DNA of 64,000 nucleotides. Source: a virus (taxonomy: Duplodnaviria; Heunggongvirae; Uroviricota; Caudoviricetes). The stretch is from IMG/VR virus record IMGVR_UViG_3300013094_000021, one strand, 5' to 3'. The position numbers and the translations under genes were made by a program. The notes beneath the pieces are model-generated. The model was given only the letters and a program-made list of their open reading frames with translations. It was not told the origin of the DNA and did not search any database. Below are positions 16,102-40,842 of the stretch, in pieces. Numbering within the stretch: the first letter of the stretch is position 1; each line of letters opens with the position of its first letter.

Positions 16102-16122
16102 AAAACAAATAATAGAACTAAT

Positions 16123-16977: not shown

Positions 16978-17368
16978 TAAAATTTTCACCAAAATACCAG
17001 TTTCTAAAAAACTGTTTGGTTCCACCAATGAATTTTCCTTTTCGCTTAAACCTTCAAGTCTAGGCGGCGTTGGAGTATTCGCAAATCACGGAATAAAAAA
17101 GGGAACTAGGCTATCTCTTTTCTATTCTAATGTCAGAATTCTAAAAAAAAATAAGGTAAAAGGCAATCTGAAAAAATTCTGTTTGTTTTTTGGCGTTGAA
17201 ACCAAAAACGAATATCACATACCAAGAAATTTTGGAAGAATGGATATCGGATGGTATCTAAACCATTGCGATTCTTTTAACGCAATTCACGACAAGTATT
17301 ATAGATATTTCGCGTCAAAAGATATTCAATCCGGCGAAGAGGTTACGATTAATTACTCTGATTTATGA
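16970..17368 (+). CDS. SET-domain protein (putative lysine methyltransferase)
   Basis: GGVGVFANHGIKKGT, LNHCDSFNA (NHSCxPN-like), GEEVTINYSDL (GEELTxxY-like). Confidence 0.55.
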   Translation: MDNKIFTKIPVSKKLFGSTNEFSFSLKPSSLGGVGVFANHGIKKGTRLSLFYSNVRILKKNKVKGNLKKFCLFFGVETKNEYHIPRNFGRMDIGWYLNHCDSFNAIHDKYYRYFASKDIQSGEEVTINYSDL

Positions 17369-17850
17369 AAAATATTATTAAACAAAAACATTTTAATACA
17401 ATCTATTTGGGCGGGCCAAAAAACGAGATTGAAACTCTGAATTTCTCTCTTTATAATTTCAATCAGAGATTTAATAGTGATTTAATCGAAATGTCAGACG
17501 ATTTCTTTTATTTTATAACCACTGAAAAGGATTACATTAAAGCCAGAGCAAGGAATATCCACTTTAATTGTAAATTAGACTTTGATACCGGAGACAAAAG
17601 AAAGAATTTTCTATCTACTTTGAAAGTTAGAAGAATTTGCAATCAAAAAGCCAAAAAAGAATTCGATGGCATCAAAGAGGAAAGCTTTGTAGTTCCATAC
17701 GAATCATCCTTCAATGAGTATTCATTTGGAAAAATTGTCAACAAATTAAGTGAAGTAAACTTAAAAGAGGATGAAACCAAGTTTGAGGTTGGCATTAAAA
17801 TTGAAGAAATTAACGATTCCGACGACGAATCAGAAGAAGAAAAGATTTGA
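17365..17850 (+). CDS. hypothetical protein with poly-acidic C-terminal tail
   Basis: ends ...EEINDSDDESEEEKI. Confidence 0.45.
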   Translation: MKNIIKQKHFNTIYLGGPKNEIETLNFSLYNFNQRFNSDLIEMSDDFFYFITTEKDYIKARARNIHFNCKLDFDTGDKRKNFLSTLKVRRICNQKAKKEFDGIKEESFVVPYESSFNEYSFGKIVNKLSEVNLKEDETKFEVGIKIEEINDSDDESEEEKI

Positions 17851-20168: not shown

Positions 20169-21065
20169 ATGAATAAAAATAACCAGTTCACTATCGGCGG
20201 CGACCCAGAGGTTTTTATCTCCGGCAAAAACGGCGAAATTCATTCATCCATTCCTATCCTTAAGCGCGACAAGCATAATCCGATTGTTCTTGACAAGAAA
20301 AGCGGCGTAAAGACTTATGCCGACAATTCTCTGGCGGAAATGGCTTTCAATCCAAGCAAAAGCAAGAAAGAGTTTGTCGAAAAATACCGCAAAGCCTTCC
20401 TCGGACTCCAAAAATATCTTGGCAAGAATTATCGAATCAAAATTCAATCCGCACACTTCTTTAAGGAAAACGAGCTTGAAGCCGCACATGGAATTGACCC
20501 GATGCAAGTCGGTTGTTCTCCTGAATTTAACCATTGGAAGCGCGAAGTTAATCAGCTTGGCGAATTCACCAATACAATGCGTTCCGGCTCGTCTCATATT
20601 CACATTGGACATGAAATGTTCAAAGATATCAACAACAAGGAGCGCGCCTTGAAGATGATTGAAATTTTCCTTGGTTGCTCCTCTGTCATTTGGGACAATG
20701 ACAAGACTTCTTCCGTTCGCCGCGAAAAATATGGCACAAGCGGCTCGTTTCGCCCCACCGATTATGGATTTGAAACGCGCTTTATGTCCAACTATATGCT
20801 CAATTCTCCGAAATTGGTTGAATTGGCATACGATTTGATTGAATTCTCTCTTTCCTTTGTTTTTAACGACAAAGACGCCGAAATTCTCTCAAAGGTTAGT
20901 GTTGAAGACGTTCAAAATGCAATTAATAAATGCGACAAAGATTTGGCCGTTTCGGTTTTGAAACAGGCCGGACTTACCGAAGAACTCTTCAAAAGAGTCG
21001 TCGAGCAATCCAAAAAGAGCTATTCCACGAAAGATTTCTACAAGGAGTGGGATATCAAAGTTTAA
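20169..21065 (+). CDS. YbdK/GCS2-like amidoligase
   Basis: GGDPEVFI and SSHIHIGHE motifs; paralogue of 10850. Confidence 0.5.
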   Translation: MNKNNQFTIGGDPEVFISGKNGEIHSSIPILKRDKHNPIVLDKKSGVKTYADNSLAEMAFNPSKSKKEFVEKYRKAFLGLQKYLGKNYRIKIQSAHFFKENELEAAHGIDPMQVGCSPEFNHWKREVNQLGEFTNTMRSGSSHIHIGHEMFKDINNKERALKMIEIFLGCSSVIWDNDKTSSVRREKYGTSGSFRPTDYGFETRFMSNYMLNSPKLVELAYDLIEFSLSFVFNDKDAEILSKVSVEDVQNAINKCDKDLAVSVLKQAGLTEELFKRVVEQSKKSYSTKDFYKEWDIKV

Positions 21066-21436
21066 GGAGCTTTCTGCTTGGCGTTTATTAGTGTAACCAG
21101 AACGATAAACAAATAAACACACCTATCAGCGGCAATGTTAGATACGGACATTGAAATTAGGTAATGACGTGGAGAATCGGGATTCGTCATAAACGCCAAT
21201 CAGAATTAAATTGACAAACAAATTACCTTCTTTATAATAAATTCATGCAAGAAAGAAAAGACATTTGGCCGGATTCGTTTTTGATGGCTATTTTGTTTTT
21301 TCCTTATTATGTATTGCGCGACCAAGAGTTTTCTATTGCTTTTAGAGTTTTACTTGCTACGGTTATTTCCGCTCAATATATCTGTTTTTTGATTGCCTGT
21401 TTTTGCAGATTGATGGTTTTTATTTTGAATTAATTT

Positions 21437-21844
21437 ATGAATCGAGAAATTAAATTTCGAGTCTGGGATAAAAAAAGGAATCGGTTTCTTGAACAGTATG
21501 GATTTAATGTCGGAATCCCAAAAGACAATATTTGGTATTGTTTGGCGAAAATCCTTTCTGGGGAAGTTTATCCTTTTTTAATTCCACAACAATTCACCGG
21601 CCTGAAAGATAAAAACGGAAAGGAGATTTACGAAGGCGATGTTTTGGAAGCTTCGGGTTGTGCCCAACCCAATAAACTTCAAGTAGTTTGGGCAGACGGA
21701 ACTGTAAAATTCGACCATATACTAGGTTTCACTCTAATCAGAGTTGACAAAATAATCCAATACGGTTTCAGCGAAAGATTTCCAACTACAAAAAGAATTA
21801 TTGGCAATATCTACGAAAACCCAGAATTAATCATTAAATTTTAA
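21437..21844 (+). CDS. YopX-family phage protein
   Basis: MNREIKFRVWDKK... N-terminus and EGDVLE block typical of YopX. Confidence 0.5.
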   Translation: MNREIKFRVWDKKRNRFLEQYGFNVGIPKDNIWYCLAKILSGEVYPFLIPQQFTGLKDKNGKEIYEGDVLEASGCAQPNKLQVVWADGTVKFDHILGFTLIRVDKIIQYGFSERFPTTKRIIGNIYENPELIIKF

Positions 21845-21897
21845 AATCAACAATATATCATTGACAATTTCAAATTATCCTTTAATATATAAACCAC

Positions 21898-22548
21898 ATG
21901 AATAAAACCAAAAGAATCGCCTACGTTATCGGCGTCGGCAATCAAGATTACGGCTATGGCAATTGGATGCAGATAGATAGATTCACAAACGATATTCGCG
22001 AGGCTAATTTTTGCATAGGTCTTGGCGGCAGCGACGTTTCACCAAGTTTTTATAATATGCCAGACAGCGGGCTTTGCCATTCCGTTTATTCTGTGGATAT
22101 TCAGGAATACAAAGACTACAAAAAAGCGATTGAATTGAAGAAAAAAATCGTCGGCATTTGCAAAGGTAGCCAATGGCTTTCAGTTTTGGCGGGCGGCAAA
22201 CTTTTCCAGCATATTGACCACGACTATATCCACAAAATCAAAACCTTTGATGGAAAAGAGCTTTTAACCAATAGCCTACATCATCAAATGAGCGACTTGG
22301 AAGAATTGGCCGAAAACTCCGATTACAAATTGCTCGCATGGTCTGAAAGTCTTTCCAATTTTCATATTGACGGAAATAGCGATGACAGAAAATGCAGCAA
22401 AGAACCGGAAGCAATTCTCTTTCCGAAAATCAATGGACTCGGCTTTCAAATGCACCCAGAAATGATTTTTAAGTCGGCTGGCAAGAATCATCCTTTTATT
22501 AATTGGAGCAGAGAAATACTTAATAAATTTTTGGATAATAAATTGTGA
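21898..22548 (+). CDS. class-I glutamine amidotransferase-like / peptidase C26 (gamma-glutamyl hydrolase-like)
   Basis: IGLGGSDVSPSFYN, ICKGSQWLSVLAGG, HHQM, FQMHPE (Cys-His catalytic pair context). Confidence 0.55.
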   Translation: MNKTKRIAYVIGVGNQDYGYGNWMQIDRFTNDIREANFCIGLGGSDVSPSFYNMPDSGLCHSVYSVDIQEYKDYKKAIELKKKIVGICKGSQWLSVLAGGKLFQHIDHDYIHKIKTFDGKELLTNSLHHQMSDLEELAENSDYKLLAWSESLSNFHIDGNSDDRKCSKEPEAILFPKINGLGFQMHPEMIFKSAGKNHPFINWSREILNKFLDNKL

Positions 22549-22883: not shown

Positions 22884-23675
22884 TTGAAAACAATCAATCT
22901 CTACAATCTTAAGAATGTTAAAGTTATCTTATTTCCAGATAACCAGCCTCACGTTATCATTGAAAACATTCAAGCTGGCGATGAAGTTAGACTTGTCGCG
23001 CCACTTCGCACAAGTCTTGAAGTCCTTCAAATGCTGGAAGTATCGAATGCCATAGATGAAATTGGCGCAATCAAGAAAGATTTGGTAATTCCATACCTAA
23101 TGGGCGCAAGATTCGACAGAATCATGCAAACCGGAGACAGTTTCGACCTTAAAGTAATTGCTAATTTGATTAATTCTTGCAATTTTCCAGTAGTTAATCT
23201 TTTTGATGTTCACAGCAAGGTTTCCACTGATTTAATTAAAAACTCTCGCAGCCATAACAATAGCAAGCTTTTAAAGGCTTACGACAAGAAAAATGTTGTT
23301 TTGATTTGCCCAGACAAAGGCGCGCTAGGACGAGTTGACTTTTACAAGCAAAATCTTGATATTAAAGACGTTGTTTATTGTGAAAAAAGCCGCGATTTGA
23401 GCAACGGCAACTTAACTCTGACCGTTAAAAATCCTGAAAAATGCGAAGGGCAAAATTGCGTTTGTGTTGATGACATTGCCGATGGCGGTGGGACGTTTCT
23501 TGCTATCGCCTCTCAAATCAATCCCGCACATTTTACTCTTATAGTTAGCCACGGCATTTTTAGCAAAGGTTTTTTAAAATTAGAGGAGTTTTTTGACGAA
23601 ATTATTACGAGCAACAGCTATCGAAAAAACTACGAAAGTAATATAGTTAAGGTGGTAGATTTAAATCTCTATTGA
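22884..23675 (+). CDS. ribose-phosphate pyrophosphokinase (Prs)-like protein; possibly an ADP-ribose pyrophosphokinase (Adps-like)
   Basis: IPYLMGARFDR (cf. IPYFGYARQDR), VCVDDIADGGGTF PRPP-binding loop. Confidence 0.6.
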   Translation: MKTINLYNLKNVKVILFPDNQPHVIIENIQAGDEVRLVAPLRTSLEVLQMLEVSNAIDEIGAIKKDLVIPYLMGARFDRIMQTGDSFDLKVIANLINSCNFPVVNLFDVHSKVSTDLIKNSRSHNNSKLLKAYDKKNVVLICPDKGALGRVDFYKQNLDIKDVVYCEKSRDLSNGNLTLTVKNPEKCEGQNCVCVDDIADGGGTFLAIASQINPAHFTLIVSHGIFSKGFLKLEEFFDEIITSNSYRKNYESNIVKVVDLNLY

Positions 23676-23771
23676 GATTATTTGGACTGCCTAAAATTCA
23701 CACACCAAAATAAAACTTGACTTTAAAATAAAAATCATTAATATAAACAGACAACAAATTAATATAAAACA

Positions 23772-25235
23772 ATGAATCTAAAAACCAATTCTTTTCTTTT
23801 TTGCGACTTCTATAAGTGCGGCCACCCTTTCCAATATCCAGACAAGACTCAATTTGTTTACATTAATTGGACGGCGCGCGGCTCTCGCCTTGAAGGAATT
23901 AATGACATGGTATTTTTCGGCCTTCAATATTTTATTAAAGGCTATCTTATCCAAAACTTTAATGATAATTTTTTCAAACGTCCAAAAGACGAAGTTATGG
24001 CCGAATATAAGCGCATTATTCGCAATTCTCTTGGCGGCGATTTGCCTACTTATAGCCATATTGAAAAGCTTCACGATTTAGGTTATTTGCCTATTAAAAT
24101 CAAAGCTCTTCCAGAGGGCGTTAAAGTTCCTATGCGCGTTCCCTGTTTGACTATACTCAACACGCTTGAAGACTTCTATTGGCTTCCGAATTTTATTGAA
24201 ACCTTAATGTCGTCGGTTTTGTGGTTGCCTTGTAATTCGGCAACAATTGCCAATGCCTATCGAAAACTTTTGGATGGTTACGCCGAAAAAACAGGAATGC
24301 CAAAAGAATTTGTTCAATGGCAAGGACATGACTTTAGCTTTCGCGGAATGAGTTCCTTTGAAAGCGCAGTTACTTCCGGCATGGGTCACTTGCTATCCTT
24401 CACCGGAACGGACACCGTTCCGGCGATTGTAGGACTTGAACAATACTATAACGCCAATAGCGACAAAGAACTTATCGGCGGTAGCGTTCCAGCTACGGAG
24501 CATAGCGTTATGTGTTCTGGAGAGAAAGATAACGAACAAGAAACATTTGAAAGACTAATTACAAAAATCTATCCTAATGGAATCGTATCAGTTGTTTCTG
24601 ATACTTGGGATTTGTGGAGAGTTTTGACTGAATATCTTCCTAATTTGAAAGATAAAGTTATGGCTCGTAACGGAAAGCTTGTTATTCGTCCAGATAGCGG
24701 CGACCCCGTTTTGATTATTTGCGGCAATCCAGACGGAAAAACCGAAGCGGAGCGCAAAGGCGTAGTTGAATTGCTTTGGGATGTTTTCGGCGGAACGGTT
24801 ACAAGCAAAGGATTCAAGTTGCTTGACAGTCACGTTGGAGCGATTTATGGCGATAGCATCACGCTAAAAAGAGCGGATGAAATTTGCTCTCGCTTGATGG
24901 CTAAAGGATTCGCTTCGCAAGTCGTTTTCGGTATTGGAAGCTTCACCTATCAATACAATACTCGCGACACTCTAGGCTCTGCGGTTAAAGCCACTCATGT
25001 AACCATTGACGAAAAAGATATTAGTATCTCTAAAAATCCTATCACCGATAGCGGACTCAAAAAATCGGCCTGTGGATTGTTGCAGGTTGCAAAGGAAAAC
25101 GGAAAATACGTCCTGCATGATAACGTATCTTGGATTAAAGAAGCGCAGGGCGAATTGCAAACCGTATTTGTGGACGGAAAACTTGTTAAGGAATGGACGC
25201 TTTCAGAAGTAAGAAATAATCTAGCTAATTCTTAA
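23772..25235 (+). CDS. nadV: nicotinamide phosphoribosyltransferase family protein (NadV/NAMPT or Namat-like)
   Basis: DFYKCGH, FFGLQYFI, GTDTVPA, VPATEHS, VVSDTWD, IRPDSGDP all align with NAMPT signature blocks; 487 aa. Confidence 0.8.
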   Translation: MNLKTNSFLFCDFYKCGHPFQYPDKTQFVYINWTARGSRLEGINDMVFFGLQYFIKGYLIQNFNDNFFKRPKDEVMAEYKRIIRNSLGGDLPTYSHIEKLHDLGYLPIKIKALPEGVKVPMRVPCLTILNTLEDFYWLPNFIETLMSSVLWLPCNSATIANAYRKLLDGYAEKTGMPKEFVQWQGHDFSFRGMSSFESAVTSGMGHLLSFTGTDTVPAIVGLEQYYNANSDKELIGGSVPATEHSVMCSGEKDNEQETFERLITKIYPNGIVSVVSDTWDLWRVLTEYLPNLKDKVMARNGKLVIRPDSGDPVLIICGNPDGKTEAERKGVVELLWDVFGGTVTSKGFKLLDSHVGAIYGDSITLKRADEICSRLMAKGFASQVVFGIGSFTYQYNTRDTLGSAVKATHVTIDEKDISISKNPITDSGLKKSACGLLQVAKENGKYVLHDNVSWIKEAQGELQTVFVDGKLVKEWTLSEVRNNLANS

Positions 25236-25238
25236 TCT

Positions 25239-26024
25239 ATGACTAAAGAAAAATTAAAAATTTCAGAGCCTAAAAAAAATAGGGGCGCCCTATCCGAAGG
25301 TAGAAACAGAGGATTCGGCCAGTGTTTTGTTAAAAAAGTTGGTAATTTAATTGAAATGCCTTACCCTATAAGTGCTTGCGGCGACTTCATTAACGACCAA
25401 TTACATTCGCAAGTAACCGGAAAAAGCTGGAATATCCACGGGCAAAACAGTCAGAGGCACGAGGGGCTTTTTGACGAAAAAAATAATTGCGCCTATATGC
25501 TTGGCTCGGTTTTAACCATAAACAGAGGCGGCAAATACGACAACTACGACAGAGATTTGAAATGTCTGGAATCTAATTACTCTCATTTAGAAAAATTTAT
25601 TAATTTCTTTGAGAAATCTTTTAAATTAAAGAAAAAAACTTCCATTACTAGAATCAAGGAAAATTTGTATCTATTTAAATTACCTTTGTTTTGGACGGAA
25701 TCAATTTATTTAATTTCTCTTTATAAATTCCTGTCTCGCGTCGGTATTTTTTATGATGGCGGGAATCCTATGGATTTTTTGAATTCATTTGATAAGGACT
25801 CTGGCGACGTTTATATGTGGAGTTCAATCAAACCTAAAATAATCTCCATGATGAAAGGATTTATACCTAAATTTCCAATGAGCGCATGGGATGGTTGCCC
25901 GCATAATCTAGGGATTGTTTCGCAAATTTGGCCTAAAGAGGAAATGCAAAAACAATCTCAAAGAGCCAATATATCATCTAAAAAAATTACCGCGACCGAA
26001 AGACAGATTTGGAAGCCAATTTAA
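25239..26024 (+). CDS. hypothetical protein
   Basis: 261-aa ORF immediately after NAMPT gene. Confidence 0.45.
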   Translation: MTKEKLKISEPKKNRGALSEGRNRGFGQCFVKKVGNLIEMPYPISACGDFINDQLHSQVTGKSWNIHGQNSQRHEGLFDEKNNCAYMLGSVLTINRGGKYDNYDRDLKCLESNYSHLEKFINFFEKSFKLKKKTSITRIKENLYLFKLPLFWTESIYLISLYKFLSRVGIFYDGGNPMDFLNSFDKDSGDVYMWSSIKPKIISMMKGFIPKFPMSAWDGCPHNLGIVSQIWPKEEMQKQSQRANISSKKITATERQIWKPI

Positions 26025-26070
26025 TCCATAATTAAGTTGACAGGATAAAAAAATCCTTCATAATAATTAC

Positions 26071-27258
26071 ATGAAAGTTTTCACTAACGGCAGAGTTCCA
26101 ATCAAAAGCTGGTGCAATAATCCAGAAGCGGGAGCAATCGAACAGGCTACCAATCTCGCCAATCTTCCTTTTATCTTTAAATGGCTCGCTTTGATGCCTG
26201 ACACTCACCAAGGCTACGGAATGCCGATTGGCGGCGTTTTGGCGACCAATGGAGTCGTAATACCTAATGCGGTTGGTTCTGACATTGGCTGTGGAATGAG
26301 TTTCATCGAATCTGATATCAAAGAATGGGGCAGAGAGGATTTAATTGAAATTTTAAAGACTATCCGCGCCACTATTCCAGTTGGCTTCAACAAGCACAAA
26401 GTAAAGAAAACATCCGACTCAATTCCGTCTATTGAATCTCAATTCTCTAATGGCGAAAACCTCCCTATAATCAGAAAAGAGTTTGATAATGCTCTTTTTT
26501 CTGTTGGGACGCTCGGCGGCGGCAACCATTTTATTGAATTGCAAAAAAACGAATCCGGCAATCTTTGCGTTATGATTCATTCCGGCAGTCGAAATCTTGG
26601 CAAAAAAGTTGCCGACCATTACAATAAGCTCGCCGAAGAACTGAATTCAAAATACTTCTCTAGCGTTCCAAAAGAATATGATTTAGCTTTTTTGCCGCTT
26701 GATTCATCCGAAGCGCAGGAATATATTTCTGAAATGAATTATTGTGTTAATTTTGCATTGGCTAATCGTATGCAAATGATTTTTGAATGTAGAATGGCTA
26801 TTTGCGAGGCTTTTCAAAACAAGGTTGAAAAGGTTAATTTTTCTAATTTTATTAATATACCCCACAATTACGCCAGACTGGAAAATCATTTCGGCGAAAA
26901 TGTTATGGTTCATCGCAAGGGAGCGACCTCTGCGAAATTAAATGAATTAGGATTAATTCCGGGTTCGCAAGGTTCTAGTAGCTATGTCGTTCGCGGCAAA
27001 GGAAATGTCAATAGTTTTTCCAGTTGCTCGCACGGCGCGGGCAGAAAACTTGGGCGCAAAGAAGCTCAAAGAACGCTCAACATCGAAGAGGAAAAAAATC
27101 GTTTGGAAAAACTTGGCGTAATCCACGCCATTAGAAGCGTTGATGATTTAGATGAGGCTGCGGGCTCCTATAAGGACATTGACGTAGTTATGGAAGAGCA
27201 AAAGGATTTGATTGAAATCGTCCAAAAACTTCAACCTCTGGCGGTTGTAAAAGGGTAA
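26071..27258 (+). CDS. rtcB: RNA-splicing ligase RtcB
   Basis: MPDTHQGYGMPIGGV, GSDIGCGM, GGGNHFIEL, PHNYA, SCSHGAGR conserved RtcB metal/GTP-binding motifs; 395 aa. Confidence 0.85.
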   Translation: MKVFTNGRVPIKSWCNNPEAGAIEQATNLANLPFIFKWLALMPDTHQGYGMPIGGVLATNGVVIPNAVGSDIGCGMSFIESDIKEWGREDLIEILKTIRATIPVGFNKHKVKKTSDSIPSIESQFSNGENLPIIRKEFDNALFSVGTLGGGNHFIELQKNESGNLCVMIHSGSRNLGKKVADHYNKLAEELNSKYFSSVPKEYDLAFLPLDSSEAQEYISEMNYCVNFALANRMQMIFECRMAICEAFQNKVEKVNFSNFINIPHNYARLENHFGENVMVHRKGATSAKLNELGLIPGSQGSSSYVVRGKGNVNSFSSCSHGAGRKLGRKEAQRTLNIEEEKNRLEKLGVIHAIRSVDDLDEAAGSYKDIDVVMEEQKDLIEIVQKLQPLAVVKG

Positions 27259-27268
27259 TAAAATATCC

Positions 27269-27296
27269 TTGACAATTAAAGGATATCCTTTATAAT
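27269..27296 (+). promoter_or_regulatory. consensus promoter upstream of rsr with 80-nt leader
   Basis: ccttgacaattaaaggatatcctttataat. Confidence 0.55.
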
Positions 27297-27378
27297 AAAT
27301 TTGTCGTGGCGAAGTTTAGAGTTACTTCACTTGTTATGGAAAAACACTTTAAACGCTTATTCCCGACACTAAATTTAC

Positions 27379-28686
27379 ATGAAATCAAATAAAAAAGAAT
27401 TGGTTGAAAAATTAACCGAAGAAGGCGCGAAAGCCGCGCATATTACGCCTTATCAATCGCTTCGCCGCTCGGTTTTATCCACACTCCTTTTTGAAGACAA
27501 CTTTTATGAAGACGGAATTTCCGTATCTGAAAGAATTAAAGAATTAATTAAAGCCGTTTCGCCGGAAAAAGTCGCGGATTTGGCGATTGAAGCCAGAACT
27601 AAATTCAAGCTTCGCCATATACCTCTTTTTTTGGTTCGCGAATTGGCTCGTTACGAAAAATCAAGATACCTTGTGGCCGAAACTTTGTCGGCGGTTATTC
27701 AAAGACCGGACGAATTGGGGGAATTCCTTTCTCTTTACAACAAAGACGGAAAGCAACCTTTGGCCGCATCCGTCAAAAAAGGCTTGTCTCGCGCCTTCCA
27801 AAAGTTTGACGAATATTCTCTTCAAAAGTATAACGGTGGAACTCCCGAATATAAACTTCGCGACGTTCTTTTCCTCTGTCACGCCAAACCAAAAAATGAA
27901 GAGCAGGAAAATCTTTGGAAAAAATTGATTAATAATCAATTGGAAACGCCGGAAACTTGGGAAACCAAAATCGGCAAAGATGGTAAAAAAGAAGCTTGGG
28001 AGTCTCTTTTGCACGAAAGAAAGCTTGGCTCTCTCGCTCTTTTGAGAAATTTGAGAAACTTCAAAGTAAATGGAGTATCAGAGAAATTAATTAAATCCGC
28101 CATTTCGGAAATGAAAACCGATAGAGTCCTGCCTTTTAGGTTTATCACCGCCGCGAAATATTATCCTTCCCTTGAATCAGAACTGGAAGGCGCGATGTTT
28201 AAATGCTCAAAAAACATTGATAAAGTCAGCGGAAAGACTCTTCTTCTTATTGACGTTTCCGGCTCAATGGATAAGCCTCTATCCTCAAATTCTGAAATGA
28301 CTAGACTTGAGGCGGCTAATTCTTTGGCTATTCTAGCGCGCGAAATCTGCGAAGAAGTTAAAGTATTTACTTTTTCCAAGCAAATCATTGAAATTCCAGC
28401 TAGACGCGGATTTTCCTTGAGAGACGCTATTAACAGTAGCCAGCCTCACAAAGACACCTATCTGGGCGCGGCAATTAAATATTTAAACGAAAATGAATCA
28501 TTTGAAAGATTAATTGTTATTTCTGACGAACAATCGGACGATGAAGTTCAATTTCCTAAATGCCCGAAAGCATACATGATAAATGTAGCCAACAACAAAA
28601 ACGGAGTAGGCTACAATAAAAATTGGATTAATATTTCTGGTATGTCGGAGTCGGTTTTCGACTATATTCAAAATATTGAAGAATAA
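27379..28686 (+). CDS. rsr: Ro60-related protein Rsr (TROVE domain + C-terminal vWA/MIDAS)
   Basis: N-terminal TROVE-like region (LLFEDNFYEDG..., HIPLFLVRELA), C-terminal LLLIDVSGSMDKPL MIDAS motif; adjacent to rtcB as in bacterial rsr-rtcB operons. Confidence 0.6.
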   Translation: MKSNKKELVEKLTEEGAKAAHITPYQSLRRSVLSTLLFEDNFYEDGISVSERIKELIKAVSPEKVADLAIEARTKFKLRHIPLFLVRELARYEKSRYLVAETLSAVIQRPDELGEFLSLYNKDGKQPLAASVKKGLSRAFQKFDEYSLQKYNGGTPEYKLRDVLFLCHAKPKNEEQENLWKKLINNQLETPETWETKIGKDGKKEAWESLLHERKLGSLALLRNLRNFKVNGVSEKLIKSAISEMKTDRVLPFRFITAAKYYPSLESELEGAMFKCSKNIDKVSGKTLLLIDVSGSMDKPLSSNSEMTRLEAANSLAILAREICEEVKVFTFSKQIIEIPARRGFSLRDAINSSQPHKDTYLGAAIKYLNENESFERLIVISDEQSDDEVQFPKCPKAYMINVANNKNGVGYNKNWINISGMSESVFDYIQNIEE

Positions 28687-29837: not shown

Positions 29838-30149
29838 ATGTTTGATTACAAAAAAGCCAACGCTTCCAGCGAATTTCCATCCGCCGAAAAAGTAAAGGAA
29901 ATTTACGATTCTGTTCACGTTGATTTTACCAAGGAGAATTTTCAAAAACTGCTTGAGAGAAATGTTGAAATGGACTTGGCCTTAAGTCACCTAATCGCCT
30001 TTTCTCGTCGAATCTGGGATGAAACTGAAATGGTTTCCGGCTGCATAAAGCTAAAAGATATCGAGGAGATTTTGAAAAGAAATGATTTAGTTCTTGGTCA
30101 AATCGCCGAAGCGCCTTTAGTCCTAAAAAAAACCGAAAACAATCCTTGA
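29838..30149 (+). CDS. hypothetical protein (paralogue of 30639..31016)
   Basis: shared LLERNVEMDLALS / LLIRNIEMDLMLS and ERNDxxLG blocks. Confidence 0.4.
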   Translation: MFDYKKANASSEFPSAEKVKEIYDSVHVDFTKENFQKLLERNVEMDLALSHLIAFSRRIWDETEMVSGCIKLKDIEEILKRNDLVLGQIAEAPLVLKKTENNP

Positions 30150-30196
30150 CAAATTAAGATTATCCTTTATTATTGAATTAAGCAATAAACAAATAT

Positions 30197-30592
30197 ATGA
30201 ATACCAATCAAAACACCGAAGTTACCTCCAGCCGCAAAGTTGGCCGCCCGATTAATCCTAATGCTACGCGCGAAATCTTTTTGAGAAAGACCAAGGACGC
30301 CGCCGGAAACGAAGTTCTTACGCCGCTCGGCAAAGGGCGCCGTGGCTCTGGAAATTTCGTTAAGGTGGTTGTCCATCGCTCCATTGACTCCTCTAACTAT
30401 ATTCATGGTCAAACTCCGATTGTCGGCGAACCAGTGAATGTTTCGGTTGAGCCGCAAGCCTCCGAACAAAAAAGCAATCCTGTTTCCGTGACCGTGCATA
30501 TCAGCGAGGAAAAAACCGAAATTCCGATTACTCAACAAAGTCAATCGGTTTCCTCCGCCGAATCCGAAAATCCAATTCCCGCCTCCGCATGA
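30197..30592 (+). CDS. hypothetical protein with AT-hook-like KVGRPINP motif
   Basis: 131-aa ORF, Ser/Pro-rich. Confidence 0.4.
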   Translation: MNTNQNTEVTSSRKVGRPINPNATREIFLRKTKDAAGNEVLTPLGKGRRGSGNFVKVVVHRSIDSSNYIHGQTPIVGEPVNVSVEPQASEQKSNPVSVTVHISEEKTEIPITQQSQSVSSAESENPIPASA

Positions 30593-30638: not shown

Positions 30639-31016
30639 ATGTTTTTTTATCGTTTTCTTTTGGTTTTTGCCAGTTTATTTATACTGGCGGCATCAAATCT
30701 CGAAAAACTCAAACGACGAAAATTCTGGAAGGTAAAAACTCAAATGCTTGATGACGAAACATTAAGATTGAAGTCAATGGAGATTTTCAATTCAATTAAT
30801 ATTGAATATTCGCCGGAAAACCTTAACAAACTTCTAATTAGAAACATTGAAATGGATTTGATGCTTTCGGAAGTTATTTGTGCCTCTAAATTTGCTTGGC
30901 CCGCCGCCAAAACTGTTACCGGCTATATATCTCTACATCCAATTGAAAAAACACTTGAAAGAAACGACGAAATACTTGGAAAGCTCTGCAAACCAAACGA
31001 ATTAAAAAGCCAGTAG
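30639..31016 (+). CDS. hypothetical protein with N-terminal signal/TM
   Basis: paralogue of 29838. Confidence 0.4.
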   Translation: MFFYRFLLVFASLFILAASNLEKLKRRKFWKVKTQMLDDETLRLKSMEIFNSINIEYSPENLNKLLIRNIEMDLMLSEVICASKFAWPAAKTVTGYISLHPIEKTLERNDEILGKLCKPNELKSQ

Positions 31017-31030
31017 TTCAAATTAAAAAT

Positions 31031-31231
31031 ATGTCAATCTCCGAAAAACAATTAAAAGAATTGAAGAAAAAAGGTATTTCTGACGACATTTTGCGCGAAG
31101 CTGATATTTTCTTGACAGAAAATAAATTTGAATTACTATATCTTACGGATTTAGGCGCTGGTGAGTATCGAGTAATGTTTAGAAGACCGGACGGCAAAGG
31201 TGACGCCAGAATCTTCAACTATCCTAATTGA
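31031..31231 (+). CDS. small hypothetical protein
   Basis: 66 aa. Confidence 0.3.
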   Translation: MSISEKQLKELKKKGISDDILREADIFLTENKFELLYLTDLGAGEYRVMFRRPDGKGDARIFNYPN

Positions 31232-31232
31232 A

Positions 31233-31487
31233 ATGAAAGAATTTGAAGGCTTTGAATTTATCAATCCAAACGTAGAGGATTTATCAAGTATAGTAGTTAA
31301 AGGCTATAACAAAATCGCCTATTGGAACCCTTTGCTTGCAAAACCTTCTTTCTTCACCGGACACTCTGGCCGAACTCTTATATATATGAAGAATAACTTC
31401 GCGGCCTGTCAATACTTTTATAGAGTAATTAATACGCCGCCGAAACAAAAATTTCCATGCGACAAACCTTTTCCTTACGGATTTTGA
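31233..31487 (+). CDS. small protein with conserved C-terminal FPCDKPFPYGF tail (family member 1)
   Basis: start placed at MKEFEGF just after preceding stop; C-terminal motif shared by six ORFs. Confidence 0.4.
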   Translation: MKEFEGFEFINPNVEDLSSIVVKGYNKIAYWNPLLAKPSFFTGHSGRTLIYMKNNFAACQYFYRVINTPPKQKFPCDKPFPYGF

Positions 31488-31946
31488 ATGAATATTCCAG
31501 AAGGATATCAAATAATTGACGACCCAGATTATATCATAAAATCTGGGGATAAATTTCTCGCGCAAATACCATCAAGTAAAATACATGATTTTGTTGATAG
31601 TGTTGGAGCCACATTAAGATACGTCAAAGTGTATTTAGGAAAAATCGTTGTTCTCTCAAAAATAGAAAAACCAATTAATTCTATTGAAGAAAGTAAAAAT
31701 CAATTAAAATTAGACATTCAAGTTCCAGACTCAAAAGTTCCGCCCGAAGGCTACGAAATTTTAGATAAAAAATTTTACTCAAAATATTACATAAAAGACT
31801 CCGACCTTGTTTTTGCAAATGGGCAATGGATTAAGGCTAATAGGATTTTAATTCGCTCCTATAATGTAAAATATAACGAAAAATACATAACCAACAAAGA
31901 AGTCATTATTGCTTGCAAAGGCAAGCCCTATCCTTATGGATATTAA
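31488..31946 (+). CDS. protein with C-terminal CKGKPYPYGY tail (family member 2)
   Basis: ATG immediately after preceding TGA. Confidence 0.4.
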   Translation: MNIPEGYQIIDDPDYIIKSGDKFLAQIPSSKIHDFVDSVGATLRYVKVYLGKIVVLSKIEKPINSIEESKNQLKLDIQVPDSKVPPEGYEILDKKFYSKYYIKDSDLVFANGQWIKANRILIRSYNVKYNEKYITNKEVIIACKGKPYPYGY

Positions 31947-32184
31947 AGAGAATAAATTTGAAGATATTACTCATTTGGATGACCTTGTTTTGGAAAGGAA
32001 TGAATTATTTGATTATTTTTTCGATTACGCAGACCACAAAAAAGAAAAATTCCGCATCAGGAGCATACTTTTAAAAAACAAGGTTTCCATATTGAAAAAA
32101 AATTGGTATGGAATTAAAATCTATCGAAAATTGAAATATCCAGTCCTGTTTGAGACTGAAAAAAAATTTCCTCACGGCTATTAA
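31936..32184 (+). CDS. small protein with C-terminal EKKFPHGY tail (family member 3)
   Basis: start ATG overlaps the YGY-stop codons of the upstream gene. Confidence 0.35.
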   Translation: MDIKENKFEDITHLDDLVLERNELFDYFFDYADHKKEKFRIRSILLKNKVSILKKNWYGIKIYRKLKYPVLFETEKKFPHGY

Positions 32185-32224
32185 AAATTCTTGACAAATT
32201 CAATTTGTCCTTTATTATAAAGGC

Positions 32225-32977: not shown

Positions 32978-33359
32978 CAGGTTTCAAGAAAAATTAATTG
33001 AAATCTCGCGGGCCTTGAAGCTTGAAAAGCAAGGCATGAGAGAGTTTCATGTTTGCTTTATAACTCGAAAAAATAAATTAATAGCTGTCGGCTGCAATTC
33101 AACTAAAACACACCGATTAGCCTTGGACTTTAAATATCCTTTTGCCGAAAAAGGAACTCACGCCGAATGTCAGGCGATAATTCGCGGCAAAAAGAAAAGT
33201 TATCGCGGCCATGAAGCCTATATTTTAAGAATAAACAATAACAATCAGGCCGATTTTTCCGCGCCTTGCTCCGCTTGTTCAATTTTGTTAAAAAGAATGA
33301 AGTTCAACAAGATTTATTTCACTAATAAATCCGGCTCGTTTGTATGCCAAAAAAATTAA
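32970..33359 (+). CDS. CMP/dCMP-type zinc deaminase (cytidine-deaminase fold)
   Basis: HAECQAI (H-A-E) and PCSACSILL (PCxxC) zinc-binding motifs; start taken at MNNRFQ, 8-nt overlap with upstream stop. Confidence 0.5.
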   Translation: MNNRFQEKLIEISRALKLEKQGMREFHVCFITRKNKLIAVGCNSTKTHRLALDFKYPFAEKGTHAECQAIIRGKKKSYRGHEAYILRINNNNQADFSAPCSACSILLKRMKFNKIYFTNKSGSFVCQKN

Positions 33360-33634
33360 AATTTGAAAAATTCTACTATTGGGGCTACGGTAAGCGCAGC
33401 ATTGGAAGCCTTAACTTTTTTTACGCTTCATCAGGAGAAAAAGTTTATTGTTTTGACGTAACGGATGAAAAAACGGTTGCCGAAATTTGCCATAATGTTT
33501 CACCCAGCTATAAATTAAATCAATTTAAATTTATCGAAATTCCTAAAAAAGAAATTCCGGCTAATGTAATAGAGGCTTTTGAAAAAGTCGGCCAACAAGC
33601 AAAAATTTTCAAATTAAAGAAATTCAAGCCATGA
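33344..33634 (+). CDS. small hypothetical protein (tandem paralogue 1 of 3, ends FKLKKFKP)
   Basis: three consecutive ~86-96-aa ORFs with shared W/Y-rich core and FKxKKFxP C-terminus. Confidence 0.4.
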   Translation: MPKKLKFEKFYYWGYGKRSIGSLNFFYASSGEKVYCFDVTDEKTVAEICHNVSPSYKLNQFKFIEIPKKEIPANVIEAFEKVGQQAKIFKLKKFKP

Positions 33635-33891
33635 ATCCAGAAGATTTCAATTACTATCTAATTAAAGGCAATAATTATCTATACCGATTTCCAAAAGACG
33701 GTGAGAAATTCGGTTGGAGTTGGGGTCTTTCCACAGTTAGTCACCAATCCGATTGGAGCGCAGGTCTATATGCCAGACAAACTTACCCGACTAATTGGGA
33801 ACTAATAACTCTCGAAAAAGCCAAAGAAGTTTGTCCTCAAGCGTTTGTAGAAAAAGTTTATTTTAAATTTAAAAAATTCAACCCCGTTTAA
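33631..33891 (+). CDS. small hypothetical protein (tandem paralogue 2 of 3)
   Basis: see 33344. Confidence 0.4.
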   Translation: MNPEDFNYYLIKGNNYLYRFPKDGEKFGWSWGLSTVSHQSDWSAGLYARQTYPTNWELITLEKAKEVCPQAFVEKVYFKFKKFNPV

Positions 33892-33893
33892 AC

Positions 33894-34154
33894 ATGAACT
33901 TAAGAAATTACAAATATTTCCTCTATCAAAAAAACAAGACTGTTTACCGATTTTCAAAAAATATCGAAAAAAACAAAAACGGTCACTATTGCGACTTTGG
34001 AAGCGACCAATGGTTTGCTGGCGTTCACTGGAACGCCGGAACTCCATACTGGAAAGAAATTTCAATCGAAGAATTAAAAAAGATAAATCCAATCCTTTTT
34101 GTTAAAAAACAAAAATTCATCCTTAAAAAATTCAAAAAACCGTTGACTTTTTAA
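33894..34154 (+). CDS. small hypothetical protein (tandem paralogue 3 of 3)
   Basis: see 33344. Confidence 0.4.
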   Translation: MNLRNYKYFLYQKNKTVYRFSKNIEKNKNGHYCDFGSDQWFAGVHWNAGTPYWKEISIEELKKINPILFVKKQKFILKKFKKPLTF

Positions 34155-34893: not shown

Positions 34894-35187
34894 ATGAAAA
34901 GATTTTTTATTAGAAACGGATATTATGGGTATTGCCTAGAAAACGATAGCTTGTTTTTCGGAAAAAAAGACGCGACTTCAAACGTCAGCAATATAGCTAT
35001 TATTCCATTTAAAAAATCCGGCTACGCTCCGGCTCAAGTCAATCAAATGAAGGGCTTCCAAGAAGTGAGCGTCGAATTGTTCAAAAAAGAATTTCCGCCT
35101 AAATTTTTTCCAAATCTTTACAAACATTTTCCAAAGAAAAAGGAAAAAAAATTCTTTTCACTAAAGAAATTCAACGGCTCAATTTAA
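34894..35187 (+). CDS. hypothetical protein
   Basis: 97-aa ORF. Confidence 0.3.
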   Translation: MKRFFIRNGYYGYCLENDSLFFGKKDATSNVSNIAIIPFKKSGYAPAQVNQMKGFQEVSVELFKKEFPPKFFPNLYKHFPKKKEKKFFSLKKFNGSI

Positions 35188-35477: not shown

Positions 35478-36209
35478 ATGAAAAACACAAAAAAGCCTGT
35501 CATTGGTATTACCGGCCCCTCTCAATTCACCGCTCAAGTCCGTGAAATGGTGTCCGATTTTTTCGGCTCAATTCCTTTGGATATCAACCAGAACGGCTAT
35601 AACGATTTGAAGCAAATCGCGGAAGTTTGCGATGGCTTTATTTTTGCTGGCGGCGTTGATTTGTTTCCAGCGACCCTAGACAGAGAGATTTTGACCGGAA
35701 AAGGCTACTCAAAATTTGACCGCAAGCGCGACCTTCGCGAAATTAATCTAATTAAAATTGCGGGCGAACAAGGTAAATCAATTTTCGGCATTTGTCGCGG
35801 CCATCAAATGTTGCTCTCCAATCGCGGCCTTTATCTTATTCCAGATATTAGCGGAATTTCCGATGTTTGCCATAGCCCCAGAGAGATTGAAACCAATAAC
35901 GAGCCAATCCATTTCGTTCGTGGCATCGGAAAAGGTGTCGCTGAATTCGGCGAAAGAGAATTAGTTAATAGTTATCACCATCAAGCCATCCTTTACGGAG
36001 ATAAAGCCAAACAAAATAAAGAAGTGGAAATTCTTGGTATATCTAGCGTGTCTTTTGCCAGAGGCGAAAATACCGGCGTTAAAATCGTCGAACTCGCCAG
36101 AGGCGACGGCTTTCTTTCCTGCCAATGGCATCCAGAACTAGACTGGAAAAACGTCGAATCATCTAAAAAAGTTTTGACAATGGCAAAGAAAATGTTCAAT
36201 ATTGAATAA
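35478..36209 (+). CDS. class-I glutamine amidotransferase-like / peptidase C26 (second copy)
   Basis: FIFAGGVDLFP, ICRGHQML, NSYHHQAI, CQWHPE. Confidence 0.55.
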   Translation: MKNTKKPVIGITGPSQFTAQVREMVSDFFGSIPLDINQNGYNDLKQIAEVCDGFIFAGGVDLFPATLDREILTGKGYSKFDRKRDLREINLIKIAGEQGKSIFGICRGHQMLLSNRGLYLIPDISGISDVCHSPREIETNNEPIHFVRGIGKGVAEFGERELVNSYHHQAILYGDKAKQNKEVEILGISSVSFARGENTGVKIVELARGDGFLSCQWHPELDWKNVESSKKVLTMAKKMFNIE

Positions 36210-36251
36210 AATCTTGACATATAGAATTTAATTTTTTATTATAATCGCATT

Positions 36252-36872
36252 ATGAAAATCGGACTTGAAGTAGAGTTTTTCCTCACTAAAGACGGAAACA
36301 TTATTAACGTAGGTAAGGCTGGCTTGCCTAGCGACGAATATCCATTGCTTGCCGAGGCGCGCGGAAATGCTTTCGACTGCATTTTTCAAGCTGTTGGCTC
36401 TGTGCGCGGCGAAATTGAAAGAATTGTTTCCCTCGCTAGTAAAATTGGCGCAACCCCATTGTTTTCCGATTGGATAAAAAAAGATGGATTAACTGAAAAA
36501 TTAGATGAAGAAATTCTTCGCCAAGGTTTTTCAAAGCATATCGGCTGGCGAAATCTTTACGGCAAAAATCCGTCCTCTAAAAACAAACGATTCATTCCTG
36601 CCGGTCTTCACGTTTCATTTACGCAAAGCAAGTCTTTTGCCTATATTACATCACAAAATCAAAATCAAGTTTTCCAATACAATTCTTTATTTGATTATCC
36701 TCACGTTTTTAATAACATTACCAAGGAATTTCTGCCAGAAATTAAAGCCTCTGGCCGAGTTGAGGGATTTTACGAAGTCAAGGATGACGGACGAGTTGAA
36801 TATCGAAGCCTACCAGCGACTCTTATTAATTCGCAAAACTTTGCGGAGCGTTTGTTTCGTTGTTTAAAGTGA
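36252..36872 (+). CDS. YbdK/GCS2-like amidoligase (short form)
   Basis: MKIGLEVEFFL (GxExE) and AGLHVSFTQ. Confidence 0.45.
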   Translation: MKIGLEVEFFLTKDGNIINVGKAGLPSDEYPLLAEARGNAFDCIFQAVGSVRGEIERIVSLASKIGATPLFSDWIKKDGLTEKLDEEILRQGFSKHIGWRNLYGKNPSSKNKRFIPAGLHVSFTQSKSFAYITSQNQNQVFQYNSLFDYPHVFNNITKEFLPEIKASGRVEGFYEVKDDGRVEYRSLPATLINSQNFAERLFRCLK

Positions 36873-38031: not shown

Positions 38032-38766
38032 TTATTTCATGTATTGTAATTTTCTATTCAATATCCTTGAAATTGAGGCGTAAGATATATTTCCTATTTT
38101 ATTAGCAATTTGAGTTAAAGATAATCCTTTTTCTCTTAAATAGAATATTAATTCTATTTGTTTTTTGTTAAGTTTTTTGATAGAGAGTGATAGATTCTTT
38201 TTATGGGATTCGGATTTTGGTTTATTAGAAAGAGCTAATGAAATCTTTTTTCTTGTATGTTCTGTGATAACTTGTTTTTTTCTTGACTCTGATATTTTTT
38301 TAAGAGCTTCTGTTGAATGTCTTTTTCCAAACATACCGTTATTTTTGCCCGTAACTTTTAGTTTGTTTTCAATTTTTTTCATGTGATGGTTTTCTCCAGA
38401 GTGTTTCTCGCGATACTCTTGGTTTTTCCAAGTATTTTTCATTATTAATGAAATATTATTTGAGGCCGTTTCGCCTCCGTCGGTCATATTAACTAAACGA
38501 TAATTTTGTTCTTTTAAATGCTTAATCCAGTAAATTTCTCTCTCTTTCCAATTGTTTTCATCGCACGATTCAAGAAGCTGAATAGTTGGGACTAAACTCT
38601 CTTTTAATAAAGACTCTATCCAAAATTTTCTATGGTTTTTCTTTTCATACTTGACATTTGATATGTGTTGTGATAATCTCTTTTTTAGAGAAGCTTTTGT
38701 TTTACCAACGTAACGTATCTCGTTAGTAATAGGATGCTTTAAAACATAAATATTAATTTGATTCAT
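38032..38766 (-). CDS. GIY-YIG homing endonuclease
   Basis: NIYVLKHPITNEIRYVGKT (GIY...YVG), downstream R, E, N..DGG motifs, C-terminal HTH; only minus-strand gene in a + block. Confidence 0.7.
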   Translation of the reverse strand: MNQINIYVLKHPITNEIRYVGKTKASLKKRLSQHISNVKYEKKNHRKFWIESLLKESLVPTIQLLESCDENNWKEREIYWIKHLKEQNYRLVNMTDGGETASNNISLIMKNTWKNQEYREKHSGENHHMKKIENKLKVTGKNNGMFGKRHSTEALKKISESRKKQVITEHTRKKISLALSNKPKSESHKKNLSLSIKKLNKKQIELIFYLREKGLSLTQIANKIGNISYASISRILNRKLQYMK

Positions 38767-39778: not shown

Positions 39779-39826
39779 TATTTCTTGACATTAAAAAGTA
39801 AATTCCTTATTATAGTATAACAAACT

Positions 39827-40159
39827 ATGCCGACAAAAAAACAGCTTGATTTCTACGAGAAGAATAAATCAGAATTTGATTATTTTTTTGAAGCTAGAGG
39901 TAGAGCGTATGATTTAATTTACGAGGGGGAAATTCTGGCGACCGACTATGTAGCCGGACTTAGAAAAAGTAGATTCAGTGAAAAGAAAAGGTTTGCCTTG
40001 CAAAAAGTCTGTCTAAATCCTGACTCAACTTCAACGGTTGAACGCTATGCGAAAGATTTTGATTTGCCTTGGATTATTCTCGCTTGCCGCCCGAAGAAGA
40101 AAACTATAAGTAAAAATAAAATCTTTCCTTCTGAAAAGGATTTTCCGCATGGATTCTAA
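39827..40159 (+). CDS. small protein with C-terminal KIFPSEKDFPHGF tail (family member 4)
   Basis: C-terminal motif family; stop overlaps next start. Confidence 0.4.
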   Translation: MPTKKQLDFYEKNKSEFDYFFEARGRAYDLIYEGEILATDYVAGLRKSRFSEKKRFALQKVCLNPDSTSTVERYAKDFDLPWIILACRPKKKTISKNKIFPSEKDFPHGF

Positions 40160-40466
40160 TTTAATAAAAGAATTGCACGAAAAAAATTCCGAAACCTTCG
40201 ATAAGGTTTTAACTGGCTATTTAGGTTACGGATTGGAGTCTTTAAAAAAACAAGGATATGTATTGGCCGACCATCCTAGAGACATTATTAAATCTGGGTG
40301 GTTTTTTTTAGCGGCCAATCACACTTTAGGAAGAGCGACCATTTATGGCGGTAAAACATACGAGTATCTTTATAATACCTACGGTCTTCAATTATTTCTA
40401 AAAAGAGCCCCGTTAATTCCAAAAAAGATTTTCGCCTGTGAAAAGGAATATCCCCATGGATTCTGA
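40149..40466 (+). CDS. small protein with C-terminal KIFACEKEYPHGF tail (family member 5)
   Basis: start ATG lies inside PHGF codons of upstream gene. Confidence 0.4.
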   Translation: MDSNLIKELHEKNSETFDKVLTGYLGYGLESLKKQGYVLADHPRDIIKSGWFFLAANHTLGRATIYGGKTYEYLYNTYGLQLFLKRAPLIPKKIFACEKEYPHGF

Positions 40467-40785
40467 AAAAATAAAAGAATTAAAAGAAAAATACCTAGAG
40501 TCTTTTAATAAAGAATTAATTAATAAATATGGAAAAGATTTGAGTCTTTTTGAATCTCAAGGCTTTGTTTTGGCCGATAACCCGAATGATATTTTAAAAA
40601 GACGCGGCATTTTTGCAAGTTCCCAAGGCTACTCTCGTTTGTATTTGGATGAAGCCTATGATTATGCTGGAAAAACCTACGAGAGACTTTTTGAAAGTCA
40701 CGGAGTAGTTTTATTTTTGAAAAAAATAAAAGTTAATCCAAAGAAGATTTTTCCATGTGAAAGGGATTTTCCCTATGGCTATTGA
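40456..40785 (+). CDS. small protein with C-terminal KIFPCERDFPYGY tail (family member 6)
   Basis: start taken at MDSEKIKEL, overlapping upstream PHGF-stop; clear paralogue of 40149. Confidence 0.4.
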   Translation: MDSEKIKELKEKYLESFNKELINKYGKDLSLFESQGFVLADNPNDILKRRGIFASSQGYSRLYLDEAYDYAGKTYERLFESHGVVLFLKKIKVNPKKIFPCERDFPYGY

Positions 40786-40842
40786 TTTGACTTGACGAAA
40801 ACATAGGAATGATTTAAAATCAATTCGTCGCCAGTTAAATAC

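Follow-up and report, generated by a model that had tools for sequence, protein, structure and literature searches.

The window analysed here, a stretch of 64,000 nucleotides (nt) from the Caudoviricetes virus record IMGVR_UViG_3300013094_000021, encodes six small proteins that share a short peptide, the tail, at their extreme C-terminus. Their genes lie on the + strand in two clusters, cluster 1 at 31233-32184 and cluster 2 at 39827-40785. The original prediction, made from the letters of the sequence, had placed six open reading frames (ORFs) with such ends at these sites, and indeed the six ORFs and their tails were found there, with stop codons ending at 31487, 31946, 32184, 40159, 40466 and 40785:

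31233-31487, + strand: ORF A, 84 amino acids (aa), ending ...KQKFPCDKPFPYGF; tail codons 31446-31484; gene also called on the JGI contig
31488-31946, + strand: ORF B, 152 aa, ending ...ACKGKPYPYGY; tail codons 31905-31943
31936-32184, + strand: ORF C, 82 aa, ending ...LFETEKKFPHGY; tail codons 32143-32181; start ATG within the tail codons of ORF B
39827-40159, + strand: ORF D, 110 aa, ending ...NKIFPSEKDFPHGF; tail codons 40118-40156
40149-40466, + strand: ORF E, 105 aa, ending ...KKIFACEKEYPHGF; tail codons 40425-40463
40456-40785, + strand: ORF F, 109 aa, ending ...KKIFPCERDFPYGY; tail codons 40744-40782

The tail and its distribution

When the window is translated in six frames, the pentapeptide [FY]P[HY]G[FY] appears six times, always at the end of a + strand ORF with the stop codon immediately after. 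From composition, 0.11 occurrences of the motif and 0.006 C-terminal ones are expected by chance, and the mean number of C-terminal motifs in 300 shuffles of the window was 0.003. The codons used in the six tails vary synonymously (Pro CCT, CCG and CCC; Gly GGA and GGC; Tyr/His TAC, TAT, CAC and CAT), and pairwise identity among the six proteins is 49% in the tail and 16% in the bodies.

Word-indexed searches, which covered 5.8e9 proteins, gave almost only self matches to the window phage, which recurs at 99.9-100% identity in one JGI and two Logan assemblies, on contigs of up to 115.7 kb. An exhaustive HMMER search of 1.84e9 cluster representatives with a profile of the six proteins retrieved one outside member, P0007, a protein of 76 aa (E=1.8e-5) that ends ...KPRFKTDKPYTFGY. 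It is encoded on the ENA contig L007 (GC content 35%), on which six small ORFs end [KR]F[KAP][TS][DE]K[PH]Y[PT][YF]GY. A degenerate DNA pattern of the tail then revealed members in the IMG/VR contigs 3300035171_000015 and _000016, of which the latter has at least nine, and in six JGI metagenome contigs. The family is rare, with a total of 32 distinct tailed ORFs in the window phage, one ENA, two IMG/VR and six JGI contigs, and the better-sampled genomes contain from five to at least nine copies each. The search of related phages for the tail motif, which the original prediction had named as a check, was thus positive.

Not every pattern match was accepted. The 16 matches in GTDB (185,579 species genomes) were all ORFs of 5-51 aa and were taken as chance, and 11 of 17 metagenome matches were rejected on the same ground. 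A reading of 12 aa, DFRSEKLFPYGF followed by a stop codon, matched the pattern in three unrelated metagenome or genome contigs (L017, L032 and L039); rather than a family member, this is probably some conserved sequence translated in the wrong frame. On the minus strand of the IMG/VR contig L010 (227-1116), one member seems to be split: the ORF that matches the body ends ...IIIASKNS, and the tail, ...KRFATDKPYPYGY, is on a separate ORF of 33-42 aa, which may reflect a frameshift, a pseudogene or an assembly error.

Other searches were negative or nearly so. There was no match among 50,697 GenBank phage records with tblastn and two family members as queries, nor among GenBank phages with megablast of 16 kb. 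A search for related loci in IMG/VR found nothing with single family proteins and one locus only with an alignment of nine sequences, and the first DNA pattern, derived from cluster 2 only, had no IMG/VR match. The six window proteins have no match in Pfam or PHROGs, the family has none in Pfam, PHROGs, NCBIfam, PADLOC, PDB sequences or solved structures and folds, fold searches gave no meaningful match, and a literature search for the tail pentapeptides returned irrelevant results only.

Many genes of the family-bearing contigs have counterparts in the window, with 30-65% amino-acid identity and partial synteny. This synteny extends to the surroundings of both clusters, as a homologue of the gene at 30197 precedes the cluster on L007 and a homologue of the gene at 40843 is found among the IMG/VR members. 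By gene content, the contigs are true relatives of the window phage. In three more distant relatives (L004-L006), whose Band_7 protein is 65% identical, the 10 kb to either side contain no tail, and their contigs were matched by neither tail pattern. The proteins form an undescribed, multi-copy family that has so far been found only in a rare clade of uncultivated phages.

Across the family the tail follows the consensus [KR]-F-x-[TCS]-[DE]-K-x-[YF]-P-[YFH]-G-[YF]-COOH, with a conserved stretch of 12-14 residues. Counted from the C-terminus over the 32 ORFs, positions -13 to -10 are Pro, Arg/Lys, Phe (31/32) and Lys; positions -9 to -6 are Thr/Cys/Ser, Asp/Glu, Lys (29/32) and Pro; and positions -5 to -1 are Tyr/Phe, Pro (31/32), Phe/Tyr/His, Gly (32/32) and Tyr/Phe. 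Between pairs of members, 61% of positions are identical in the last 12 residues and 18% in the bodies. In the family-bearing DNA (139 kb, six frames) the pentapeptide was counted 42 times and was directly followed by a stop codon in 41 cases, while the fraction of stops in six-frame translation is 0.064.

Of the consensus that had been predicted from the window, K-x-F-P-C-E-[KR]-[DE]-[FY]-P-[HY]-G-[FY], the first half, K-x-F-P-C-E-[KR]-[DE], is specific to the window phage. The tails of the window phage have no Arg at -12 and no Lys at -10, and they are marked by Cys at -9, His at -3 and Phe at -1. Fisher p values for these features range from 0.0005 to 0.04, although the data points are not independent. 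The features could be due to co-evolution with a partner or simply to shared descent. They are suggestive of concerted evolution of the tail within the window phage, which is not separable from shared descent because the body phylogeny does not resolve.

Overlapping genes and the body domain

The genes are tandemly expanded and often arranged head-to-tail with an overlap of 11 nt, in which the tail codons of one gene contain the start of the next. The original prediction counted four such junctions, of which three were found (31936, 40149 and 40456):

31936-31946, + strand: overlap of ORFs B and C, 11 nt, ATGGATATTAA; start of C within the Tyr-Gly-Tyr-stop codons of B
40149-40159, + strand: overlap of ORFs D and E, 11 nt, ATGGATTCTAA; start of E within the His-Gly-Phe-stop codons of D; Shine-Dalgarno-like AAGGA, in the Glu-Lys-Asp codons, 8 nt upstream
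40456-40466, + strand: overlap of ORFs E and F, 11 nt, ATGGATTCTGA; start of F within the tail of E; Shine-Dalgarno-like AAGGAA 7 nt upstream

At 31487, ORF B starts directly after the stop codon of ORF A (TGAATG). The tail of ORF C at 32184 contains no ATG and ORF C has no overlap downstream, a consensus promoter following directly; the ATG at 40775 in the tail of ORF F opens an ORF of six codons only.

These overlaps raise the question whether the motif is a nucleotide-level by-product, its codons being kept as the Shine-Dalgarno sequence and start codon of the gene downstream. In cluster 2 the dual coding is real, since AAGGA arises from the Glu-Lys-Asp/Glu codons and is followed after 7-8 nt by the embedded ATG, which the His/Tyr-Gly codons form. 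That dual coding can produce recurring C-termini is illustrated by a more distant relative, L005, in which a run of ORFs ends in ...KELK. There, at 16030-17439, four consecutive ORFs end ...[KG]ELK with ATGA overlaps of 4 nt; the Shine-Dalgarno sequence of each following gene probably lies in the Lys-Glu codons, so that this recurring C-terminus is probably of nucleotide-level origin. For the tail, however, a usable downstream ATG (start at -11) was present in only 7 of the 32 ORFs, three of the six window tails lack a productive overlap, and 16 tails have Phe at -3, where an ATG is impossible. The ratio of TAT/CAT to TAC/CAC at -3 (12:4) matches that of TAT to TAC at -1 (22:7), and across the family every possible Pro, Gly and stop codon is used (four, four and three, respectively).

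Nucleotide constraint as the sole explanation is thereby refuted and we give it a nearly negligible chance of being the origin of the motif, although in cluster 2 an influence on positions -8 to -6 and -3 is possible. In tandem arrays the overlap makes opportunistic use of the tail codons and is not the cause of the motif, because only 7 of 32 tails hold the ATG of the next gene. The motif is present in relatives and its synonymous codons are diverse, which upholds the earlier proposal of conservation at the protein level; absence from relatives and explanation by the overlapping start codon, named beforehand as what would speak against it, were both examined and neither was found.

The bodies had been described as different. 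Body-only profiles, in the form of hidden Markov models (HMMs), were built from non-window members and searched against the tail-trimmed window ORFs. The general profile matched ORF B (E=4e-14, with domain copies at 3.7e-10 for the N-terminal residues 1-61 and at 4.9e-4), ORF F (E=4e-4) and ORF E (E=0.015), and a subfamily profile matched ORF C (E=9e-4). ORFs A and D were not significant with either profile. ORF A shows a weak pairwise match to ORF F (E=0.003), and ORF D weakly matches ORF C (E=0.013) and resembles ORF F in its last 37 residues only; ORFs E and F are 45% identical. The description is consequently right only in part, and the six ORFs are at least mostly divergent paralogues, with two bodies (A and D) that have changed past recognition. 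Family proteins are small and soluble, about 70-150 aa, and their fast-evolving alpha/beta bodies follow the motif P-x-G-Y-x-[ILV]..D..Y-[IV]-[IL]-K-x-G-D-x-F...W...G-x-[ST]-[IV].

An AlphaFold2 (AF2) model of P0007, from an alignment of 10 sequences, had a predicted local distance difference test (pLDDT) score of 71 and showed a body of the order strand-strand-strand-helix-strand, with the last 17 residues as coil at pLDDT of about 57. The model of ORF E scored 58.8 and its tail was coil at pLDDT below 50. In these low-confidence models the tail is thus coil with the lowest confidence of the chain. In a simple hydropathy check, none of the six window proteins had a hydrophobic segment (maximum Kyte-Doolittle mean over 15 residues of 1.19 or less), and they are predicted to be cytoplasmic.

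A further possibility is that the tail belongs structurally to the fold and is conserved for stability, its aromatic residues packing on the body as part of, for example, a C-terminal cap or strand. Nearly all ORFs that match the body profile are also tailed, the spacer between the last hydrophobic strand and Phe at -11 is similar in most canonical members, and the aromatic residues at -5, -3 and -1 could make one hydrophobic face. Against this, the body domain also occurs without the tail. The clear case is ORF B, which consists of two body-domain copies (residues 1-61 and 82-147) with the tail on the C-terminal copy only, so that its strongly matching N-terminal copy (iE 3.7e-10) lacks the motif. 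L008 encodes a similar two-domain protein (11085-11537) whose N-terminal copy has no tail motif and no significant body-profile match (iE 3.7), and an ORF on L007 (4079-4384) that matches the body profile ends differently. Moreover, a core-packing element needs equally conserved contacts and the body is only 18% identical, it does not require the strict terminality that was observed (41/42), and AF2 placed the tail as low-confidence coil. Therefore, it seems unlikely that the tail is conserved for the stability of the fold.

The tail rather appears to be a separable, terminus-dependent module, because internal copies of the body domain lack it, because the motif is essentially never internal and because no body residues are conserved enough to pack against an invariant peptide. 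Binding of the tail by the family's own body in a head-to-tail manner was also considered and judged unlikely, as matching conserved body residues are lacking.

Promoters and neighbouring genes

The sequence TTGACA-N16/17-TAYTAT is found without mismatch at 18 sites in the window (8761-60977), all on the + strand, where 0.04 are expected. Examples are the sites at 30146, 32191, 36214, 39785, 42407, 52501, 57347 and 60150, and many of them share an extended ...CTTTATTAT -10 region. The promoters split the ORFan-rich regions into short operons and both family clusters are bracketed by them:

30146-30173, + strand: consensus sigma-70-type promoter, TTGACA-16-TATTAT, heading the operon that ends with cluster 1
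31112-31139, + strand: second promoter before cluster 1
32191-32218, + strand: promoter after cluster 1
39785-39813, + strand: promoter directly upstream of cluster 2, TTGACA-17-TATTAT
40792-40820, + strand: promoter-like site after ORF F

The same consensus is present in the relatives. This suggests that the family genes would be expressed early by the sigma-70 RNA polymerase of the host.

The window also encodes the following enzymes:

10850 and 20169: COOH-NH2 ligases
15259: type-2 glutamine amidotransferase (GATase)
21898 and 35478: C26 peptidases

The original prediction had suggested that the tail may serve the ATP-grasp/amidoligase machinery or a peptidase, in the report's genes the C26 peptidases, i.e. 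that it is the recognition or acceptor site at which these enzymes modify or trim the C-terminus. The substrate of such an enzyme would look like an invariant, terminus-dependent peptide, the window encodes the two ligases, the GATase and the two peptidases, and the pair 20169/21898 is kept in the family-bearing contig IMGVR_UViG_3300035171_000016 at 50-65% identity. Still, the link is unsupported, because the terminus is not acidic, the operons are separate and the ligase occurs in phages in which two family queries failed. The acceptors of RimK and tubulin tyrosine ligase (TTL) are acidic and the tail ends in Gly-Tyr/Phe. Both clusters are in promoter-delimited operons of their own, apart from the pairs 20169/21898 and 35478/36252. 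Homologues of the 20169 ligase were found in 305 GenBank phage records, and tblastn with two family members found none there; the reverse dependence, in which the family requires the ligase, is still conceivable. A literature search on COOH-NH2 ligases in phages returned nothing about substrates. Precursors of ribosomally synthesized and post-translationally modified peptides, such as mycofactocin MftA (...GVY) and the spliceotide XYG, have an adjacent maturase (radical SAM, P450 or YcaO), and when 116 window ORFs were compared with Pfam, 35 families matched, of which the 25 listed include no such maturase. We consider processing of the tail by the ligases or the C26 peptidases improbable.

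At two places in the window (20169-22548 and 35478-36872), a C26 peptidase/GATase gene is paired with a ligase or ligase-like gene, namely 21898 with 20169 and 35478 with the ORF at 36252. The latter starts MKIGLEVEFF..., has no Pfam match and looks amidoligase-like by eye only.

Several other features of the window were recorded. It also encodes a UvrD-like helicase, a pyrimidine-dimer glycosylase and a protein similar to T4 Y16D, and the Pfam survey of 116 ORFs recognized one SET-domain protein (E=1.7e-10), one GNAT acetyltransferase and two YopX proteins. The region 22884-28686 encodes a phosphoribosyl pyrophosphate synthetase-like protein, NAMPT, an RtcB RNA ligase and a Ro60/TROVE-vWA protein, which amounts to NAD salvage together with an RNA repair/Ro-like module in a phage. 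A tRNA-Met (CAT) lies beside a tRNA-Arg (TCT) at 47967-48193. Between the + strand operons there is an ORF of 244 aa on the minus strand (38032-38766) that resembles GIY-YIG homing endonucleases and is the only substantial minus-strand gene of the region. Just upstream of cluster 1, two paralogues (29838-30149 and 30639-31016) have in common ...EN[FL].KLL.RN[VI]EMDL.LS..... Between the clusters, a second small paralogous family of four ORFs of 86-97 aa (33344-33634, 33631-33891, 33894-34154 and 34894-35187) shares F-x-[LF]-K-K-F-[KN]-(P) at the C-termini and Y-x-Y/F-L...YRF in the bodies. Several tandem small-gene families of the region have their best-conserved segment at the C-terminus.

A possible docking role and comparison with known systems

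Since Gly and Pro are invariant and the free end is strictly needed, the tail would fit a stereospecific pocket. We give about an even chance to the candidate role of the tail as a C-terminal short linear docking motif that is read by one conserved partner protein. Its extended aromatic end, kinked by Pro and Gly, and its terminal carboxylate would fit a pocket on this single partner, which could belong to the host, as a hub, or be a conserved machine of the phage. Early in infection, this one partner would then receive or process every one of the diversified bodies, and the variable bodies, expanded in tandem within early operons, would be diversified effectors or decoys with one address. The tail, which had been called a recognition tag, was borne out as a functional unit with protein-level conservation; of the classes of explanation, a recognition tag would be the most plausible one.

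A more specific form is that a portable C-terminal address peptide (...RFxTxKPYPxGY-COOH) brings fast-diversifying small early effector domains to a single conserved hub of host or phage, of which the window phage would have its own co-varying flavour (no Arg at -12, Cys at -9, His at -3 and Phe at -1). This is possible and we put it forward tentatively; if true, it would constitute a new short-linear-motif system for host takeover or counter-defence.

Two other roles for a terminal peptide have to be weighed against docking. Firstly, the tail could be a shared degron for a host protease (Lon, ClpXP or FtsH), or a decoy or inhibitor of it, that times the removal of early proteins or saturates the protease. 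In favour of this, the tail has a terminal position, many aromatic residues and probably a flexible structure, its genes are predicted to be early, and several early regulators of phages are controlled through C-terminal degrons, e.g. lambda CII. However, the tail is unlike known degrons such as the ssrA-type LAA in sequence, and degrons usually tolerate far more variation than an invariant Pro and Gly, so that we see only a slim chance for this role. Secondly, with four basic and four aromatic residues among 14 and a net charge of about +3, the tail could be a generic basic-aromatic anchor for an anionic membrane or nucleic acid. For an anchor of this kind, electrostatic or aromatic, neither an invariant Gly at -2 and Pro at -4 nor a free terminus is needed. 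We infer that the invariant residues favour a protein pocket over such binding, and we regard an anchor as very improbable.

Several points weigh against tail docking as the preferred explanation. The docking partner and its binding are hypothetical, and early expression is read from promoter sequence only. Members were partly gathered through the motif itself, which inflates the apparent invariance; as a partial control, the body-only HMM recovers almost exclusively tailed ORFs. Confidence of the AF2 models was low to moderate with alignments of 6-10 sequences, and packing of the tail onto the body is possible. Likewise, the fairly constant spacer from the last strand to Phe at -11 in canonical members is also expected of an integral structural element.

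The present status is that of a well-supported lead and not of a mechanism. If the tail is a docking tag, a synthetic peptide of 14 residues (KPRFKTDKPYPYGY-COOH) would be a ready affinity handle for the machine that this phage group targets early, and the diversified bodies would be a natural library of effectors acting on that machine. The sole strongly constrained part of this family is a terminus-dependent peptide, a signal that domain-based annotation misses entirely.

Terminal address peptides on phage proteins are already known, and this family and its motif are absent from every curated library searched. Tagging by RimK and tubulin tyrosine ligase has in common with the tail a terminus-dependent recognition and, in this genome, the presence of ATP-dependent ligase genes. 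It differs in that the acceptors end in Glu, whereas all 32 tails end G-[YF] and are net positive, and in that operon linkage is lacking and the ligase is widespread in cultured phages where two family queries were unmatched.

The capsid-targeting sequence of the T4 internal proteins is likewise a short shared terminal peptide that serves as an address label on otherwise unrelated small phage proteins. That sequence is N-terminal, is cleaved by the prohead protease and is found on late genes, whereas the present peptide is C-terminal only and its genes are behind early-type promoters. Class II PDZ ligands and the DegS-activating Y-x-F-COOH ends of outer-membrane proteins, which act in the periplasm, are also recognized in a terminus-dependent manner, and the end [YFH]-G-[YF]-COOH fits their aromatic-x-aromatic-COOH pattern in 32 of 32 tails. 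Unlike them, the six window proteins have no signal peptide or hydrophobic segment in the hydropathy check, and the conserved part of the tail extends over 12-14 residues. The C-terminal tip of bacterial SSB (...DDDIPF-COOH) is similarly a conserved terminal peptide that ends in Pro-x/aromatic-COOH, and many partners have pockets that recognize its free carboxylate and terminal Phe. The tip is acidic and is joined to an OB-fold protein by a long disordered linker, whereas the present tail is basic and has no sequence similarity to it.

Lastly, the T4 and RB69 proteins gp43 (the polymerase), gp33 and gp55 have C-terminal tails that bind the sliding clamp and are acidic/hydrophobic (e.g. ...SLFDMFDF). 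In that system, a short peptide at the flexible extreme C-terminus docks several phage proteins to one hub. The tail agrees with this in being strictly C-terminal (41 of 42 occurrences stop-adjacent) on an end that is coil in the low-confidence AF2 models. In contrast, the clamp-binding proteins are unrelated replication and transcription proteins of one copy each, and the present tail is basic/aromatic with Pro and Gly and is carried by five to at least nine paralogous tiny proteins. Although each of these systems departs from it in sequence or in compartment, C-terminal peptides that dock to a hub would be the known systems that the present tail resembles in principle.

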